From positions 1 through 8,228 of the IMG/VR virus record IMGVR_UViG_2737471869_000029: a stretch of 8,228 bases of DNA. One strand, written 5' to 3'. Below the pieces are notes generated by a model. The model saw nothing but the letters and a program-made list of their open reading frames with translations. It ran no database searches and had not been told where the DNA came from. Made by a program: the position numbers and the translations under genes. How positions within the stretch are numbered: the first letter of the stretch is position 1; each line of letters begins with the position of its first letter. This document shows positions 59-8,228 of this stretch, one piece after another. The stretch is from a virus. Lineage: Duplodnaviria > Heunggongvirae > Uroviricota > Caudoviricetes.

Positions 59-1939
59 TCATGAAGAAATCGCTCTGACCATTCCGCGATAATCCAGAGC
101 AGCAACGCCAGCATCAATGCGGACCTTCCAGGCCACACCGTCAACAATAAAGCCCTCCTGCTGCTCAAGGTAAGGCTCGTCATTACCGTCAAGATAAGCC
201 ACCTCAATTGTGTCCGTTCCCTGTGCTGAAAGCATGTACCATTGCTTATCACTGACTTCATCAAGGCGGGGATCGACAATAATATCCAGTTGTTTGTGGT
301 ACGGGTTATATGAACCACTGTTTGTATCGGCACCAAAAGGCGTGGTTGAGTTAACCATTTGCAACGCTCTGTCTTCCAGAGCCGCTGGAACAAGAAGGAA
401 TTTTGGCACAATATTCAGCACCTCACCGTTTTCATCCCTCTGTGTGCGCATTGCACGGCGTGCAATGCCAAGCCCTGTAGTGCTGACTCCGTTATCAATA
501 TCATTTCCGTGTTTTTTGCTGAACAGCGGTATACCGTCAGAAAGCTTTGTGTTTCCTGTCAGCACCAGATGAACCAGATTACCCACCGTTCTGGCGGCTG
601 CTCGCCCCATTGCCTGCGGGATAACGGTTAACTGATTCAGATCATCGTTAATAATCGCCTGTCGGGTAATGCTGAAAATATTACCGTAGGTGGCCAGCGC
701 GATTGGTTCACCACGGTCACTGGTGGTTATGTATTTATATTCCGCACCTTCCGGCACTTTGTTTAATGTCGAGAAGCCATTCAGACCAACACGACGCGCT
801 TCATGGAAGTTTGACAATGAACCTTTTTTCGTCCACTGGCGAAATGTCTCGCCGCTTTGCTCCCATCCGGCAAGCACTGATTTTTCAGCGCCACCAGCAA
901 GGATATAAGTAAAATCGCTGCTGCTGTGGTTGAATGCCGCGTTTACTATCTGCGAGCGTGTGCTGTAGCTGCCTGTGCTTATGCCGCGATGGGTTAATGA
1001 TGCCTGTGCCATATCGAAAAGGCTCATCATGGCGTAAGGGTTTCCGCGTTCTGCCTGCTCGTGCCCAAGACGCGCATTAAGCCCCTGACGCATTGCATCA
1101 CCCGTTATGTTGCCGTTATCCGTATATGCGTAGTAAAGATTTGCAGGTGTGGTTTTGTTTGTCGGTGTCGATTCTTTACCCATAGTGAGTAAAAGACGTT
1201 CGCGCGCATCCTCAACGCTACACCCTGAATCAGCAAGACAACTTATAGCCAGGTCGTTATATCTTCCGTTGAACGTACCGAACAACTCACGGATCCCGTT
1301 GAGTCGTTCCTGTTCTCCGCTGGTCGTTTTCTGGCTGATCATGTTCTTAATATTTTCCGGCATATTTGAAAAATCTCCGATTCGTTTTGATTCAATTCGG
1401 GCCATTGCTGTAATCGCGGGTATAACCTCGTCTGCGAAGCCGTTAGCCTTACACTCATTGCCATCCATCCAGGTTTCCGCCTCCATCATGGCGGTGATTT
1501 CCTGTTTGCTCCTGCCCGTTCTTCCGGCGTAGGTTTCAGCCATCGTGTCGCCCAGCTTGTCCATCAGGTCAGCAAAGCGGCGAACGTCGCCCGACACTCC
1601 GGCAGTAACACCACGGGGGGCATGTATCATCATCATTGCGTTTTCAGGCATAACGATGTGATCGCCACACATGGCAATAAACGAGGCCATAGAAGCCGCC
1701 ATGCCTTCAATGTGTACAATTTTCTTTGCCGGATGATTTTTCAGGGCGTTATAGATAGCCAGCCCTTCAAAGATGTCGCCACCAGGTGAATGGATGCGAA
1801 GATGGATTTCAGACGCATTACCACACGCGTTGATCTCGTCAGTAAGTGCCGATGCTTTTACACCGTACCCGCCGATCTCGTCATAAATGCGCACATAGAC
1901 AACATCTGCCATAGCCTTAATGGAAAACCATGTTTTCAT
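59..1939 (-). CDS. Prohead serine protease (ClpP-like) fused to HK97-fold major capsid protein, 626 aa
   Basis: N-terminal ~190 aa carries ClpP/S14-like motifs (HSPGGD, GMAASMAS with the nucleophile Ser, MMMIHAP with the His). The C-terminal ~400 aa has a phage major-capsid-like tail (FLLVPAALEDRAL ... GFIVDGVAWKVRIDAGVAALDYRGMVR). AGGAG sits 7 nt upstream of the ATG at 1939, and the start overlaps the upstream ORF stop (ATGA). A hairpin with T-tract follows the stop. Confidence 0.7.
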   Translation of the reverse strand: MKTWFSIKAMADVVYVRIYDEIGGYGVKASALTDEINACGNASEIHLRIHSPGGDIFEGLAIYNALKNHPAKKIVHIEGMAASMASFIAMCGDHIVMPENAMMMIHAPRGVTAGVSGDVRRFADLMDKLGDTMAETYAGRTGRSKQEITAMMEAETWMDGNECKANGFADEVIPAITAMARIESKRIGDFSNMPENIKNMISQKTTSGEQERLNGIRELFGTFNGRYNDLAISCLADSGCSVEDARERLLLTMGKESTPTNKTTPANLYYAYTDNGNITGDAMRQGLNARLGHEQAERGNPYAMMSLFDMAQASLTHRGISTGSYSTRSQIVNAAFNHSSSDFTYILAGGAEKSVLAGWEQSGETFRQWTKKGSLSNFHEARRVGLNGFSTLNKVPEGAEYKYITTSDRGEPIALATYGNIFSITRQAIINDDLNQLTVIPQAMGRAAARTVGNLVHLVLTGNTKLSDGIPLFSKKHGNDIDNGVSTTGLGIARRAMRTQRDENGEVLNIVPKFLLVPAALEDRALQMVNSTTPFGADTNSGSYNPYHKQLDIIVDPRLDEVSDKQWYMLSAQGTDTIEVAYLDGNDEPYLEQQEGFIVDGVAWKVRIDAGVAALDYRGMVRAISS

Positions 1940-2873: not shown

Positions 2874-2919
2874 ATTTATTTTTACCCCCTCGTTTAAAAA
2901 GTTTTGAGTTGTGCCTCCC

Positions 2920-3150
2920 CTTGTCTACCTTATCTACCTTAGTGGCCATCATGCCAGTAATGGCGCGGCTTTCAGCGGGGTAGAGTGCTTTTATCCACTA
3001 TCTACCCCGTGTCTACCTCCCTGTCTGATTCAGGTAAAATCAGGTAGAGAGGGTAGATAGTGGGTAGACAGTAAAAAAAGGCTATCTACATAACTTAATG
3101 CACTGAATTAAATGTATTTTTCTTTACTCAGGTAGACAGGGTAGACAGCA
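2920..3150. repeat. Iteron-type replication origin: at least 10 copies of GGTAGA(C/G/T)(A) in both orientations around an AT-rich core
   Basis: TCTACC orientation at 2924-2929, 2933-2938, 3001-3006, 3012-3017. GGTAGA orientation at 3043-3048, 3052-3057, 3063-3068, and tandem GGTAGACAG at 3131-3139 and 3140-3148. AT-rich segment at 3072-3128. Sits directly 3' of the primase-helicase stop (3162). Confidence 0.65.
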
Positions 3151-3161
3151 ATTACAAAAAA

Positions 3162-4910
3162 TTATAAAAACGCGTCGCACTCGTCTGTTGTTATTGCGTT
3201 AGTCTGCGTTACTCCCTTAACTTTCCGCGTAATATATTCATGTCCGTAAACTTTCGCGGCTGGCTTCATAGCCTTGCCAAAGTCATTTACGTTTAGCGGT
3301 TTGCTCCTGCCTGCGTACGCCATAAACGCCAGATAGACGCGGTAAAGGCTGTTCCTGGTCGTGTACTTCACTGAATCACCACCGCCACCCATCATCAGGC
3401 CGCGCGCTTCCTCCAGAAAATTCAGGAACTGGCAAAACTCAATAACCGGATCCGTCTGTTGCTTTATTGCCAGTGCTTCATCACCGTCACGCTGTTCCAG
3501 TAGTAAAGCCCGTGCCTTCTCAGGGTCGGTAAAGTTCGCCAGCAATCGGCGGATAATGACAGGGATTTCAGCCGCGATCTTTTCCGGTAGCTCCCTGTCT
3601 TTTTCGGCCTCACTGACGATATTGTCGAAACGGAAAATTACGCGACGACGTGACACACCTCCGGCCCGTTCGGTGAATATCATCGGGTTATTGTTGGTAG
3701 CCAGCACCACCGCCCTGATTACCGCCGTAAAACGCTTCTCATATTTCGGGTTTATTTCCACGGGGTCGCCGCCCGTGATTTTCTTGATGCCCGTTCCTTC
3801 GCCTGTATATTTCGGCTGGTCAGCCAGGACGATAAGACGACTCCCGACAACCTGCGCACGTCCACCAGCATCATCAAGCGATGTCATCTCCGCGCTCACC
3901 GTGTTCTGTTTCCCTGCCAGAAGGCTGGCTATGTGCGTGAATGTACTTTTACCGCTCCCGCCGTCTCCGGTGGCCTCAATAAACATCTGCCAGTCGTACC
4001 GGTTCGCCATAATCATGTACAGCGCGGCACATATACGCATCATCTTGCGCGGGTCTTTTCCGGCTGCGTGCTCAAGCCATTTATGAAAGTTTGGCGCGTT
4101 ATCGCGGATGTTCTCCCCAGGTGCTGGTGGCGTGTACTCAATGCCGTTGTGCGTGGTGATCCAGTTCTCCGGCGTGTGCGGGGAAAATTCCCCCGTTTTC
4201 AGGTCAAGCGCACCATTGGCGAACGGCAACAAATCGCCGGACGGCTCGCCCATTGGTTCGGCAATAACTTTTAACGCTTCCACGGCGTTATTGATTACGC
4301 GCTTGCTGAAAGTGGCCCTGTGCTCTGAATAGATCGCCACCATTTCGCGGCTAAGTTCCATTGTGCTGACCGGACACCATACCCCGCCGCGCCATACGTG
4401 AACGATTTCACTTTCCGGATGCACACAAACGCCATCAAATCGACCAGCAAGCATCTGTGCGCGCTCACTGTCTGCCATTTGTGCCAATTGCGTATTTTTC
4501 TGCTCCGGCATGGTAAGCCCTGCGGCAATATTTTCACGCTCAGCATTCAGATAGCGCCGCCAGTTTTCACACTTCTGGACGTGCATTCCTTCGGGGTAAA
4601 AATTTGCGTCCTGAATATCTGCCGCCGCCAGCTTCTGACCAATCTTCTTGGTCTCCACTAAATCCAGTTCTCCGGCCTGGTACAGCCTTACGCGCTTTTT
4701 CCCATCCGGAACAATTTTCAGCGCATCAAGTTCGGCAAGCTGATTTGGCCCAAGCCACACAGGCGGCACATTATCGCCGGATGCGGGGCCATCCTGCTCC
4801 TGCCATTGTTCCGCGTGTGACCAGGCATCACTACCCGCAAAGATAATTACCTCTGTGTCTTTGTGTTTTATTCCGCGTGGCTGTTTTTTTACGTTCGGTG
4901 CCAGTTTCAT
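3162..4910 (-). CDS. Replication primase / SF3 helicase (P4 alpha-like, D5 family; PICI pri-rep type), 582 aa
   Basis: Walker A GDGGSGKST and a downstream hydrophobic-acidic stretch (LIVLAD) typical of D5-like helicases; large N-terminal domain. Start ATG overlaps the upstream ORF stop (ATGA). Iterons lie immediately downstream. Confidence 0.88.
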   Translation of the reverse strand: MKLAPNVKKQPRGIKHKDTEVIIFAGSDAWSHAEQWQEQDGPASGDNVPPVWLGPNQLAELDALKIVPDGKKRVRLYQAGELDLVETKKIGQKLAAADIQDANFYPEGMHVQKCENWRRYLNAERENIAAGLTMPEQKNTQLAQMADSERAQMLAGRFDGVCVHPESEIVHVWRGGVWCPVSTMELSREMVAIYSEHRATFSKRVINNAVEALKVIAEPMGEPSGDLLPFANGALDLKTGEFSPHTPENWITTHNGIEYTPPAPGENIRDNAPNFHKWLEHAAGKDPRKMMRICAALYMIMANRYDWQMFIEATGDGGSGKSTFTHIASLLAGKQNTVSAEMTSLDDAGGRAQVVGSRLIVLADQPKYTGEGTGIKKITGGDPVEINPKYEKRFTAVIRAVVLATNNNPMIFTERAGGVSRRRVIFRFDNIVSEAEKDRELPEKIAAEIPVIIRRLLANFTDPEKARALLLEQRDGDEALAIKQQTDPVIEFCQFLNFLEEARGLMMGGGGDSVKYTTRNSLYRVYLAFMAYAGRSKPLNVNDFGKAMKPAAKVYGHEYITRKVKGVTQTNAITTDECDAFL

Positions 4911-5211: not shown

Positions 5212-5442
5212 TTATTCTCCGGTGTGGGGCACGTTATTATTTTCGTGAATTGCCATTGCCTTATCCAGTTCATCAATAACAGGCGATAGTAATGTCTGAA
5301 TGGCTGCAAACATTAATACACCTGATTCCTCACCACCTTCCGGCACTTCAATTAATTTAATTAACAACGCATTCATTTCGCGCGCTTTAATTAATGCGTT
5401 TTCAGAGTGGATTAATACTTCAAAAGGGATTTTATGCATCAC
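5212..5442 (-). CDS. Hypothetical small protein, 75-76 aa (GTG at 5442 or ATG at 5439)
   Basis: GGGAG lies 7 nt upstream of the GTG; the start overlaps the stop of the upstream 66-aa ORF (GTGATG / TGA). Helical, acidic sequence. Confidence 0.5.
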   Translation of the reverse strand: MMHKIPFEVLIHSENALIKAREMNALLIKLIEVPEGGEESGVLMFAAIQTLLSPVIDELDKAMAIHENNNVPHTGE

Positions 5443-5639
5443 AAAATTTCTCCCTGGCGAATACGGGCGGCGAATACCATCACGCAGCCATCAGGAGATT
5501 GCTGGCGTGCTTCCTGTTCGCTGGTGGCCTCAATGGTAATCACGCGCGGTTGTGCAGTGCTCAGGGCGATAAAACGCCAGATGTATTTATTCAGGTTGTG
5601 CGAGTCCCGCCCTTGCGGGTGTGTAGTATGATTTCTCAT
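5439..5639 (-). CDS. Hypothetical small protein, 66 aa, first gene of the leftward replication operon
   Basis: ATG at 5637-5639 with GAGGT 5 nt upstream. It is the C-terminal part of the 303-aa track ORF, which I reject as a whole. Confidence 0.45.
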   Translation of the reverse strand: MRNHTTHPQGRDSHNLNKYIWRFIALSTAQPRVITIEATSEQEARQQSPDGCVMVFAARIRQGEIL

Positions 5640-5735
5640 AGCTACCTCGATACTGTTGCTATCGTTGGTGGTTAGAAGCCCGGTTAGTGTTAGCGCACTG
5701 CCGGGTTTCGTCGTTTCTGCACCTTGCATCAACAA

Positions 5736-5810
5736 GGTGTTGAACACCAATTTAAACCTAGGTGTTAAACACGTCAAGTGTTGAACACTTGTTTTTTTTC
5801 CTGCATACTG
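5736..5810. promoter_or_regulatory. Genetic switch: three palindromic operators GTGTTnAACAC over back-to-back divergent promoters
   Basis: Operators at 5737-5747, 5762-5772 and 5778-5788. Leftward promoter candidate (minus strand) TTGACG 5772-5777, N17, TAAATT 5749-5754. Rightward candidate TTGAAC 5781-5786, N17, CATACT 5804-5809. Confidence 0.6.
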
Positions 5811-5838
5811 CATTTGTTTTTTGTGAGGGGGACACAAC

Positions 5839-6018
5839 ATGGCGACAAAAGCAGTAAACGCAAAATCACAAACAGTTGCGGCAAGGGTTCCGCATGAAGT
5901 TATGAACAATGTTGAGGCGGTAAAAATGCCTGGTGAAAGTACAGGGCAGTTTGTAACAGCAGCATTAAAGCGAGAAGTTGAGTACCGCCAGCGCCGCAAG
6001 GCCAAAGAATCAGAATAA
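5839..6018 (+). CDS. Small ribbon-helix-helix-like DNA-binding protein, 59 aa (not in the ORF track)
   Basis: ATG at 5839 with GAGGGGG 6 nt upstream. Sequence MATKAVNAKSQTVAARVPHEVMNNVEAVKMPGESTGQFVTAALKREVEYRQRRKAKESE fits an RHH (Arc/CopG-like) beta-helix-GxS/T-helix pattern. Transcribed divergently from the replication operon. Confidence 0.55.
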   Translation: MATKAVNAKSQTVAARVPHEVMNNVEAVKMPGESTGQFVTAALKREVEYRQRRKAKESE

Positions 6019-6075
6019 TAACTATCATCGCCGTGGTGTGAGGAACTCCGGCGCATTGCTTTACAGGTACACAGA

Positions 6076-6249
6076 ATGACCAACAAAGAATCAACCAATA
6101 CACCATCACCGGCACGGAAAAGACGGCGCAGAAAGATAGAGCATGAATCAGAAAGATTCGCGCCATGTGCTTTTGCCCTTGAGCAATTCCTTAAAGAGTA
6201 CAGGGAAACGCGCTCATTGCAGGTATGGCAACGAACTGAACCAGACTGA
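6076..6249 (+). CDS. Hypothetical small basic protein, 57 aa (not in the ORF track)
   Basis: ATG at 6076 with a weak AGGT SD 7 nt upstream; same frame as the RHH ORF. Arg/Lys-rich N-terminus (ARKRRRRK). A plus-strand terminator follows. Confidence 0.3.
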   Translation: MTNKESTNTPSPARKRRRRKIEHESERFAPCAFALEQFLKEYRETRSLQVWQRTEPD

Positions 6250-6313
6250 TTGCATTGCCCACCAGCCTGATAGCGGCTATCATCCCCGTGCTTATGTTTA
6301 GTGCTTTCCCATT

Positions 6314-6344
6314 GGCGACCGCCCCCGGTCGCCTTTGTTTTATG
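6314..6344 (+). terminator. Plus-strand intrinsic terminator ending the rightward small operon
   Basis: Perfect 8-bp stem GGCGACCG / CGGTCGCC (6314-6321, 6326-6333) with a 4-nt loop, then TTTGTTTTATG. No T-tract on the minus strand. Confidence 0.6.
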
Positions 6345-6360
6345 TGTCATATGCTCCCCT

Positions 6361-6570
6361 TTACACTGCCTTACCTGAATTAATGCGATCCCGGCTTTTA
6401 ACCCATTCCATAACCTCGGACAGCAGCCACCCTACAGAACGACCGCCCAGATTAAGACGTGACGGAAAGCGCCCTTTTTTCTCCAGTTCGTAACGTGTAG
6501 TGCGGCACACTCCAGTTAACTTACGACATTCATCCTCACGGATTACGCGATCTTCATTTATTTCACGCAT
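6361..6570 (-). CDS. alpA: AlpA-family (excisionase-like) transcriptional regulator, 69 aa from the ATG at 6570 (track gives 98 aa from a GTG at 6657)
   Basis: Conserved AlpA core CRKLTGVCRTTRYELEKKGRFPSRLNLGGRSVGWLLSEVMEWV. The 87 bp between 6571 and 6657 is very AT-rich, promoter-like, and has no SD before the GTG, so I prefer the ATG start. Confidence 0.82.
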   Translation of the reverse strand: MREINEDRVIREDECRKLTGVCRTTRYELEKKGRFPSRLNLGGRSVGWLLSEVMEWVKSRDRINSGKAV

Positions 6571-6693
6571 ACAAAAACCTACATAAAAATTACGTATATA
6601 AACTTTTCTCTTAGCTGTAGATATATGAGATCGGATATTACTTAGATTCTTTTTCACCTCTTAAATTAAAAACACAACCATGCTAAAGGCTTT

Positions 6694-6720
6694 GTTCGCT
6701 AAGGTTCGTAGAAGCTCGTT
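6694..6720. promoter_or_regulatory. Three 10-bp-phased direct repeats G(T/C)TCG(C/T)T upstream of alpA
   Basis: GTTCGCT at 6694, GTTCGTA at 6704, GCTCGTT at 6714: exact 10-bp periodicity. Confidence 0.3.
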
Positions 6721-6989: not shown

Positions 6990-8228
6990 TCAAGAATTTT
7001 GGGGGTAAATTCGCGGGGTCATAACAACGATTTTTTCATCATTGTTCTGGAGAAGCTCGAGACGGTCTACCCATAGATTAAGAGCATCACGTTTTGCATC
7101 AAGGTAGCGGGAGTGGTTATAGACTCGTTGCATCCCTGGCATCTGGTGGGCTGTAAGCTGCTCGACAATATGCGGATCCACGCCTAAATCGTTCAGCATG
7201 GTTGTAAATGTGTGCCGGATATCGTGTAACGTCCAAGGGGCTTGATTAATTCGTCTGTGCGCTGTTCTTCCGTACTCTGCTACCGAAGATTGTCCTTTCA
7301 GTTCACCAAGCAATAAGCCCGTGTGTCTGTTCTGCTCCACCAGTTGCGTGACGAACGGCAAAATGCTTTCCGGTATTGGCCTGAATATGGCGACCTTCGT
7401 TTTGCTGTGCTCCTTCGGTACTGTCCAGAGCATTTCTTTAAAATCCCACTCCTGCACCTCAGAGCGCCTTAGCTCAGTGGTACGGCATCCAAAAACAATC
7501 AGGAGGCGAATTAGGGCGCTGTAGTATGGCGGGAATATTTTGTCATCCAGGGCGCGGAGTAATTCCCCAAGCTCCTTGTTTGTTAGTACGCGCTCGCTCA
7601 CTTCTGCTTTTTTTCCCACATCACCGACAACCATATCATCAAGAACGTTGCTGATTGCGTATCGTCGTTTTCGGCAGTACTTAAGCGCCTGTTTGCATAC
7701 CTGTAGCAAAAATCCGGCAGATACTGGGCTTCGCTTTGCCATCTGGTCAAAACATGCCAACCAGTGCCGTAGCTCGCATTTTTCCAACGGCAAAGCGCCA
7801 ATCTGGCTGATTATGTGTTTATTGATCCGGCTTTTCAGTGATTCGTAGTCAGTGCGCTTTTCCTTTGCATACGATTCAAGCCAGTAAGTGAGCGCTTCCT
7901 TAACTGTCACGGGGGCTAACGCATCCTGTACAGCACGATTAAGCTCATAGCGCGGATTTTTCCCCTCAGCCAGCCAGGCGCGACACTGTGCTGCTTTTTC
8001 CCTGGCTGCTTTCAGGCTCAGATCGGGATAATTGCCCAGTCTCAGACGTTCCGGTGATACCTGCCTACCAGTTCCGGCCCTGTAAGTGAAATACCAGGTT
8101 AACAGGCCGCTGGTGGAATGTCTTACGCTAAGATTGCCACCGTCATTAAAAAAGGCGTTTTTTGTGGTTGGTGATCCGCTTAATTTTCGTAAAAGAGTGT
8201 CGCTAAGTCTATGAATTGCGCTGCTCAT
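6990..8228 (-). CDS. int: Tyrosine recombinase / integrase, P4-type, 412 aa
   Basis: P4-int-like N-terminal arm-binding region (FNDGGNLSVRHSTSGLLTWYFTYR), catalytic motifs LHDIRHTFTT (His-x-x-Arg) and VYNHSRY (Tyr nucleophile), conserved Arg in GCRTTELRR. ATG is at 8226-8228, the window edge. Confidence 0.93.
   Translation of the reverse strand: MSSAIHRLSDTLLRKLSGSPTTKNAFFNDGGNLSVRHSTSGLLTWYFTYRAGTGRQVSPERLRLGNYPDLSLKAAREKAAQCRAWLAEGKNPRYELNRAVQDALAPVTVKEALTYWLESYAKEKRTDYESLKSRINKHIISQIGALPLEKCELRHWLACFDQMAKRSPVSAGFLLQVCKQALKYCRKRRYAISNVLDDMVVGDVGKKAEVSERVLTNKELGELLRALDDKIFPPYYSALIRLLIVFGCRTTELRRSEVQEWDFKEMLWTVPKEHSKTKVAIFRPIPESILPFVTQLVEQNRHTGLLLGELKGQSSVAEYGRTAHRRINQAPWTLHDIRHTFTTMLNDLGVDPHIVEQLTAHQMPGMQRVYNHSRYLDAKRDALNLWVDRLELLQNNDEKIVVMTPRIYPQNS

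Follow-up and report, generated by a model that had tools for sequence, protein, structure and literature searches.

In the immI region of phage P22, the RHH repressors Mnt and Arc act at the divergent promoters Pant and Pmnt, each protein having one operator of 17–21 bp, and the target is an antirepressor. Plasmid copy control combines an RHH repressor with a countertranscript, as in CopG and RNAII of pMV158, with which CopB and CopA of R1 may be compared. In phage P1, immI specifies the c4 RNA, which acts on the translation start of icd, a gene coupled to ant. SymR is a cis-antisense RNA of approximately 77 nt located over the ribosome-binding site of symE. For the Gram-negative PICIs, the paper which defined the group in 2018 described the activator AlpA alone and left it unclear whether a global repressor exists (PMC6092414).

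Gene content of the satellite and the divergent intergenic region

The window, by which is meant the whole 8228-base stretch of DNA that was analysed, is part of a PICI-type phage satellite of approximately 10 kb from E. coli. Its positions 5400–6700 (the 1.3 kb queried) are 99.8% identical to an island of E. coli O145:H28 strain 16003, which sits between clpS and cspD. The features that characterize Gram-negative PICIs were found: int and alpA, a primase module with a probable origin downstream, capsid-related genes and a chromosomal location, in an arrangement that agrees with that of EcCICFT073. When 50,697 phage genomes were searched by BLAST with the region and by TBLASTN with the 59-aa protein described below, no match was obtained. 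The features discussed here, by position in the window, are as follows.

59–1939, minus strand: ClpP-protease/major-capsid fusion gene, Icd-like operon
3162–4910, minus strand: P4-type primase gene, Icd-like operon
5439–5639, minus strand: gene for the 66-aa Icd-like protein, first gene of the PL operon (NCBIfam NF033153, E = 9e-20)
5640–5718, plus strand: candidate cis-antisense small RNA of two hairpins and a U-rich tail, supported by covariation
5679–5978: swappable immunity cassette of approximately 300 bp (operators, both promoters and RHH codons 1–47)
5720–5739: 7-bp inverted repeat CACCTTG/CAAGGTG, which abuts operator A and shares its GTG; present in many, not all, operator classes
5737–5747: operator A, GTGTTGAACAC, covering the predicted PL start point (approximately 5742)
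5749–5777, minus strand: PL candidate, leftward; -35 TTGACG (5777–5772), 17-nt spacer, -10 TAAATT (5754–5749)
5762–5772: operator B, GTGTTAAACAC, filling the PL spacer and sharing the last base of the PL -35 box
5778–5788: operator C, GTGTTGAACAC, containing the PR -35 box
5781–5809, plus strand: PR candidate, rightward; -35 TTGAAC (5781–5786), 17-nt spacer, -10 CATACT (5804–5809)
5839–6018, plus strand: YlcI/YnfO-family gene, 59 aa, predicted RHH repressor (NCBIfam NF041551, E = 2e-16)
6076–6249, plus strand: basic ORF, 57 aa, following the RHH gene in one operon (PHROG 21027)
6314–6343, plus strand: intrinsic terminator of the rightward operon, with a T-run on the plus strand only
6361–6570, minus strand: alpA (Pfam PF05930, E = 2e-16), reading towards the RHH operon and PL
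6990–8228, minus strand: integrase gene

The Icd-like operon specifies, in order, the 66-aa Icd-like protein, a 76-aa ORF, a DUF4222 protein, the primase, two small ORFs and the ClpP-protease/capsid fusion. Stop and start codons overlap at 5439–5442 (Icd-like/76-aa ORF) and 4907–4910 (DUF4222/primase), and the RefSeq annotation has a one-base overlap between the Icd-like CDS and the next; these overlaps suggest translational coupling along the Icd-like/primase operon. Just 3' of the primase gene, at 2917–3151, are approximately ten iterons of the GTCTACC/GGTAGAC type, some in each orientation and accompanied by long inverted repeats. This array is probably the replication origin of the satellite, PICI origins having been mapped just downstream of the primase gene (PMC6092414). 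Spurious miRNA matches obtained with Rfam at a permissive threshold fall in the same iteron/inverted-repeat region. The 57-aa ORF is very basic, with a PARKRRRRK motif, and accompanies the RHH gene in many E. coli elements while being missing from many others. A PerC-family regulator gene ends the O145:H28 island, as it does EcCICFT073 and EcCIMP1, which ties these satellites to virulence regulation, a connection that has been reported for EcCIMP1 (PMC11773190).

The sequence-only reading had noted three palindromes centred at 5742, 5767 and 5783, and exactly these centres were recovered when the DNA was read again. The 13-mers are GGTGTTGAACACC (5736–5748), GGTGTTAAACACG (5761–5773) and AGTGTTGAACACT (5777–5789). 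A search of the 8228-base window for GTGTTNAACAC with at most one mismatch returned exactly three sites where 0.26 were expected, and none of 200 shuffles reached three, which excludes chance. With two mismatches allowed, two more weak matches appeared elsewhere in the window, which is the chance level; since no above-chance matches were found elsewhere in the window, the sites are confined to the intergenic region.

By their consensus boxes, PL is the candidate promoter of the Icd-like/primase operon and PR that of the RHH gene. The PL -35 box (TTGACG/TTGAAG) is conserved across operator classes. In the window PR scores 8/12 against the consensus, under the cut-off of the scanner; in most relatives its -10 box is TATACT, located at -36 from the start codon, a position fixed in most class representatives. 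The -35 boxes of PL and PR are 3 bp apart. The proposal that the palindromes overlap back-to-back divergent promoter candidates is borne out by this arrangement, with A on the predicted PL start point, B touching the PL -35 box and C holding that of PR. In a transcript from PL, the inverted repeat at 5720–5739 may fold into a 5'-terminal hairpin.

With 35 aligned homologues of the 59-aa protein as the starting point, 191 loci were retrieved, their sources being species genomes, IMG/VR and metagenomes; among the 174 having enough upstream DNA the layout was kept in 172. Site A lies at approximately -102 from the RHH start codon in all operator classes, site B at approximately -77, after which comes (G/T)TCAA as the PL -35 box, and site D directly after the -10 box TATACT at -36. 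Site C was found in the TTRAA class only, the other classes using site D just past the PR -10 box. The lineage of the window has no D and carries C on the PR -35 box instead; Klebsiella-like TTRAA members carry both. All these sites have the form GTG-N5-CAC, a 5-1-5 (pseudo)palindrome, and the core falls into about ten classes across approximately 170 related loci. The cores seen include TTRAA, TYAGC, TGGYC, TCTTA, TCGGA, TCAGA, nCGGA and GAnTC, and variants with CTG...CAG flanks also occur.

Covariation of the operators with the 59-aa protein

Residues 9–17 of the 59-aa protein and the operator 11-mer correspond one-to-one, with 26 strand/site combinations and no conflicts. Five of the pairings are given below, and the remaining operator classes obey the same strand/site rule.

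KSQT[VIL]AARV: operator GTGTTRAACAC
KS[KR]KLEARV: operator GTGTCAGCCAC
KSQ[AS]LK[AS]RV: operator GTGTGGYCCAC
KSQSVTARI: operator GTGTCTTACAC
KSKRFDVRV: operator GTGTCGGACAC

The adjusted Rand index with operator class was 0.86 for the RHH strand and 0.19–0.26 for clusters of the Icd-like protein. Class information totals 2.83 bits, of which residue 14, the most informative, conveys 2.62 and residue 12, the next, 1.70, while R16 is invariant. RHH copies at least 90% identical to that of the window occur in the TTRAA class only (92/92), whereas equally similar copies of the Icd-like protein, primase, DUF4222 protein, AlpA and 57-aa protein are each distributed over two to four operator classes. 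When loci of the same class but of different genera were paired, the operator columns were 91–100% identical in six of the eight pairs and the rest of the intergenic DNA approximately 50–60%.

The binder of the palindromes is most likely the adjacent 59-aa protein, because the operator class tracks its residues 9–17 and the alleles of its neighbours mix classes. Since the operators adjoin the coding region of the RHH N-terminus, part of this co-inheritance is linkage; the argument for the binder consequently rests on the joint change of all copies in each cassette, and on the way in which residues 12 and 14 track the class in diverged backgrounds.

Membership of the 59-aa protein in the YlcI/YnfO family is clear (NF041551, 59.7 bits against a cut-off of 30), and RefSeq annotates the identical gene in the same way. 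An RHH fold is likely, judging from several features of the sequence, and the case for this protein as binder is independent of it. Residues 9–17 alternate between polar and hydrophobic, and, as expected of an RHH strand, alternate residues (12 and 14) appear from the covariation to set the bases. The G-x-S/T/N turn that precedes helix 2 in RHH proteins is present as G32-E33-S34, without exception among the 35 homologues; a Pectobacterium copy recovered afterwards carries D at position 32. Hhalign against a small, hand-entered alignment of seven RHH sequences returned the RHH register (P = 0.009, probability only 4.6%), pairing KSQTVAARVP with KMPQFNLRWP of Arc and GES with GRS, so that residues 12, 14 and 16 fall on Q9, N11 and R13 of Arc. 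These three are the base-contacting residues of Arc. Pfam gave sub-threshold matches to PSK_trans_fac and CB_ParB_C, which we take to be RHH-type families.

The AF2 model of the monomer (mean pLDDT 80.7) has helices at 19–28 and 35–58, with residues 8–16 of low confidence and not forming a strand; the missing beta-strand might be expected in a model made without the dimer partner. Foldseek of this monomer model against the PDB gave nothing significant, a profile of the RHH alignment searched against the PDB returned no RHH protein and nothing relevant, and a further large-scale search for homologues from that alignment found close family members only, without Pfam domains. In K-12, YlcI is specified by the lambdoid prophage DLP12, where its gene is divergent from nohD, a homologue of the terminase small subunit, and near the packaging region. 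No obvious GTG-N5-CAC array was seen in the ylcI region of DLP12, and the role of the YlcI/YnfO family in phages may differ.

The prototype EcCICFT073 (NC_004431.1, approximately 1,377,930–1,388,654), examined for this module over 1377930–1381052, has the same RHH/operator/Icd-like module with different operators. Its gene order is int, alpA, a homologue of the 57-aa ORF, the YlcI/YnfO gene (C_RS30120), the Icd-like gene (C_RS30125), small ORFs, DUF4222, primase, SSB, PerC and capsid. The intergenic region contains GTGTGGCCCAC twice and TGTCCCCCAC after TATACT, and the RHH strand is KSQALKARV. C_RS30120 and C_RS30125 are later-series RefSeq tags, which suggests that these genes were added on re-annotation. 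In the helper prophage of CFT073, a 60-aa ORF that precedes the terminase gene proved to be unrelated. Compared with EcCICFT073, the window shows 37–70% identity at 5679–5978, between 90–100% at 5499–5678 on one side and 63–100% at 5979–6248 on the other, where six of nine 30-base windows reach at least 90%; over most of the two flanks the identity is 83–100%. Such a core of low identity between conserved flanks is what an exchangeable immunity cassette would show. The operators and the predicted DNA-binding domain would be exchanged as one unit, and at least ten operator/strand specificities are found across the Enterobacterales.

The module is mentioned neither in the defining paper (PMC6092414), nor in a 2023 survey of PICI gene content, nor in the section consulted of the EcCIMP1 description. 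Searches of open-access papers and bioRxiv using the operator words, RHH together with PICI, and Gram-negative PICI repressor returned nothing relevant. An operator-repressor switch had been called unusual for such an element. In terms of rarity this no longer holds, the TTRAA-type cassette being present in 487 of 5426 complete E. coli genomes and EcCICFT073 having a copy of its own; in terms of description it stands, as within the searched literature the repressor layer is apparently undescribed for Gram-negative PICIs, EcCICFT073 included.

Other explanations of the palindromes were considered against the same data. The sequence-only reading had left the choice of binder between the RHH protein and the 66-aa ORF, and had likened the region to a lambda OR-like bistable switch, in which these two proteins would compete for the three operators in the manner of CI and Cro. 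The RHH half of that choice is supported by the covariation over approximately 170 loci. The 66-aa Icd-like protein finds no support as binder: it shows no covariation with the operators, one of its alleles spanning four operator classes and a second allele also four, and AlphaFold (mean pLDDT 70) gives it a small beta-beta-alpha-beta structure in which no DNA-binding fold is seen. Against the PDB this AlphaFold model gave insignificant matches only, the best being small protein-binding inhibitors, and the homologue search found close relatives only, leaving a model of moderate quality. The PHROG families that match the 66-aa protein are labelled 'transcriptional repressor', and three operators do lie between divergent promoters; NCBIfam nevertheless places the protein among Icd-type cell-division inhibitors, and the operators are of one type with no sign of a second specificity. 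A bistable switch is therefore highly improbable: all sites are of one kind, a single cognate regulator was found, and one protein predicted on both promoters makes an autoregulated repressor and not a two-repressor switch. It is also most unlikely that AlpA, or a host or helper-phage protein, is the binder and that the covariation with the RHH protein is mere linkage. AlpA is the only regulator shown experimentally in such elements (PMC6092414), and the operators are co-inherited with the adjoining RHH N-terminus; however, AlpA copies at least 90% identical to that of the window are spread over two operator classes, within one class the identity of AlpA ranges widely, a host factor cannot account for about ten operator classes in one species, and from genus to genus the class keeps to RHH residues 12 and 14 even as the surroundings diverge to approximately 50%.

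Many antitoxins are RHH proteins which autoregulate through palindromes, and the 57-aa ORF is next in the operon, so that the two proteins could form a type II toxin-antitoxin pair whose operators serve autoregulation only. We regard this as extremely improbable, as the 57-aa ORF is missing from many RHH/operator loci, including all 17 with the site B core TTGAA, two of the three sites lie on PL and not on the RHH gene's own promoter, and the 59-aa protein is without a C-terminal toxin-binding extension. Equally hard to credit is the notion that the palindromes are hairpins (terminators or attenuators) or origin iterons and not operators for a protein. A terminator scan matched site C followed by T8, and also site A on the minus strand, but the cores TCAGC, TCTTA and TGGCC are not self-complementary, and it is their sequence and not their pairing that is conserved. 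As for iterons, a separate GGTAGAC/GTCTACC array exists just 3' of the primase gene, and the primase alleles do not follow the operator class. With these alternatives weighed, we consider it probable, from the sequence comparisons, that the palindromes are operators of the adjacent 59-aa, likely RHH, repressor, which would act on the PL operon and on its own promoter.

A candidate antisense RNA opposite the Icd-like gene

The plus strand at 5640–5718 is antisense to the Icd-like gene over its 5' UTR and ribosome-binding site. Hairpin 1 pairs 5641–5646 with 5667–5672 and 5648–5652 with 5660–5664, and its loop holds an anti-Shine-Dalgarno CCTC; hairpin 2 pairs 5675–5684 with 5700–5709 and is followed by the U-rich tail. 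In 31 diverse loci, compensatory changes were observed in 12 of the 21 pairs, and pairing cells amounted to 96.2% against 83.2% in shuffles (0/500), slid controls collapsing. The plus strand pairs in 96.2% of cells, 112 of them G-U, and the minus strand in 79.6%, which identifies the plus strand as the functional one. The minimum free energy of 5640–5718 is -37.2 kcal/mol (z = -5.2). At a permissive threshold, Rfam gave a weak match to SymR (RF01809; 32.9 bits against a gathering score of 61, E = 0.003), and otherwise chance miRNA/snoRNA matches only, with no match to C4.

At 5621–5632, approximately 7 nt 5' of the RNA, most E. coli copies read TGgTATGAT, an extended -10 box, while the window and its near-identical O145:H28 twin read TAgTATGAT; judged by these letters, the RNA promoter may be weaker in the window than in most E. 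coli copies. At 5775–5799, operator C and its flanks (CAAGTGTTGAACACTTG) followed by T8 have the shape of an intrinsic terminator on the plus strand. This terminator-like operator could keep read-through from the antisense candidate from reaching PR.

The candidate RNA probably adds a translational block on the Icd-like gene. As the Icd-like stop codon overlaps the next start, and DUF4222 and primase likewise overlap, a block at the first gene could spread downstream. Such spreading from a first gene is known from c4/icd/ant of phage P1.

Proposed regulation and comparison with described systems

In the proposed mechanism, each 5-1-5 (pseudo)palindrome would be occupied by a single symmetric dimer, which would place its N-terminal beta-ribbon into the major groove. 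The variable core would be recognized by residues 12 and 14, and the GTG/CAC flanks by the invariant R16, K9 and S10 together with the N-terminal arm. Since A and B lie on the PL start point and spacer, their occupancy would silence PL and keep the Icd-like/DUF4222/primase/capsid operon off. Occupancy of site C on the PR -35 box, or of site D at the PR start in other classes, would limit the RHH protein's own synthesis. The module would thus serve as the immunity or maintenance repressor of the satellite, and possibly as a copy-control repressor too.

AlpA is necessary and sufficient for induction of EcCICFT073 (PMC6092414), which counts against the repressor reading. Our favoured guess for how repression would be lifted is that AlpA-dependent transcription from alpA would read through the RHH operon into PL territory; it could do so because the sole terminator between alpA and the RHH operon has its T-run on the plus strand. 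Such read-through would be antisense to the RHH mRNA and would enter the Icd-like operon regardless of PL. Alternatively, a helper-phage anti-repressor would lift the repression.

Among the closest described systems is immI of P22 (Mnt/Arc, Pant/Pmnt), in which small RHH-type repressors also act through short symmetric operators on the -35, -10 and +1 positions of back-to-back divergent promoters, one of them the repressor's own. The satellite differs in having one RHH protein and three to four identical 11-bp sites, in directing them at a replication and packaging operon and not at an antirepressor, and in showing no detectable sequence homology beyond the Arc register. With CopG/RNAII of pMV158 (compare CopB/CopA of R1) it has in common a small repressor on a replication-initiator operon and an antisense RNA on the leader and ribosome-binding site. 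Its repressor, however, is divergent from rep and not co-transcribed with it, several operators are present, the satellite is integrated and depends on a phage, and the antisense RNA is so far a structure supported by covariation.

The lambda OR region (CI/Cro) resembles the satellite in its three operators between divergent promoters and in the swapping of immunity regions as cassettes; in the satellite the sites are of 11 bp and not 17 bp, the predicted fold is of RHH type and not helix-turn-helix, and no second regulator was found on the sites. At the level of RNA, P1/P7 immI (c4 RNA-icd-ant) offers an Icd-like first gene whose start is targeted by a small structured RNA with downstream coupling, but c4 is encoded upstream of its target whereas the satellite RNA is encoded opposite, and does not match the C4 family of Rfam. 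SymR, like the candidate RNA, is cis-antisense over a ribosome-binding site; the match being far below the gathering score, this likeness is an analogy, possibly a distant relationship. Stl and Rpr of SaPIs and Gram-positive PICIs also are regulators divergent from the excision/replication operon, which act in the intergenic region and keep the island quiescent (PMC6092414). Stl is a large helix-turn-helix protein with helper-sensing domains, whereas the satellite protein has 59 residues and no visible sensor, and AlpA is present as well.

The mechanism itself would be an ordinary device, an autoregulated small repressor with exchangeable specificity. A wider proposal is put forward tentatively, and is somewhat less likely than not: that the master repressor so far missing from Gram-negative PICIs is the 59-aa YlcI/YnfO protein, the functional counterpart of Stl, with at least ten exchangeable specificities, acting together with an antisense RNA on the Icd-like leader and lifted indirectly by the helper through AlpA read-through or an anti-repressor. 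If this were true, the AlpA-only model of EcCICFT073 would be incomplete. The locus provides a concrete candidate gene, with its operators, for a Gram-negative PICI repressor, a probable function for the YlcI/YnfO 'y-gene' family, and a residue-to-base recognition table that is open to swaps. The antisense RNA, if real, would be a second layer of control, and the exchangeable cassettes suggest that co-resident satellites may avoid cross-repression.
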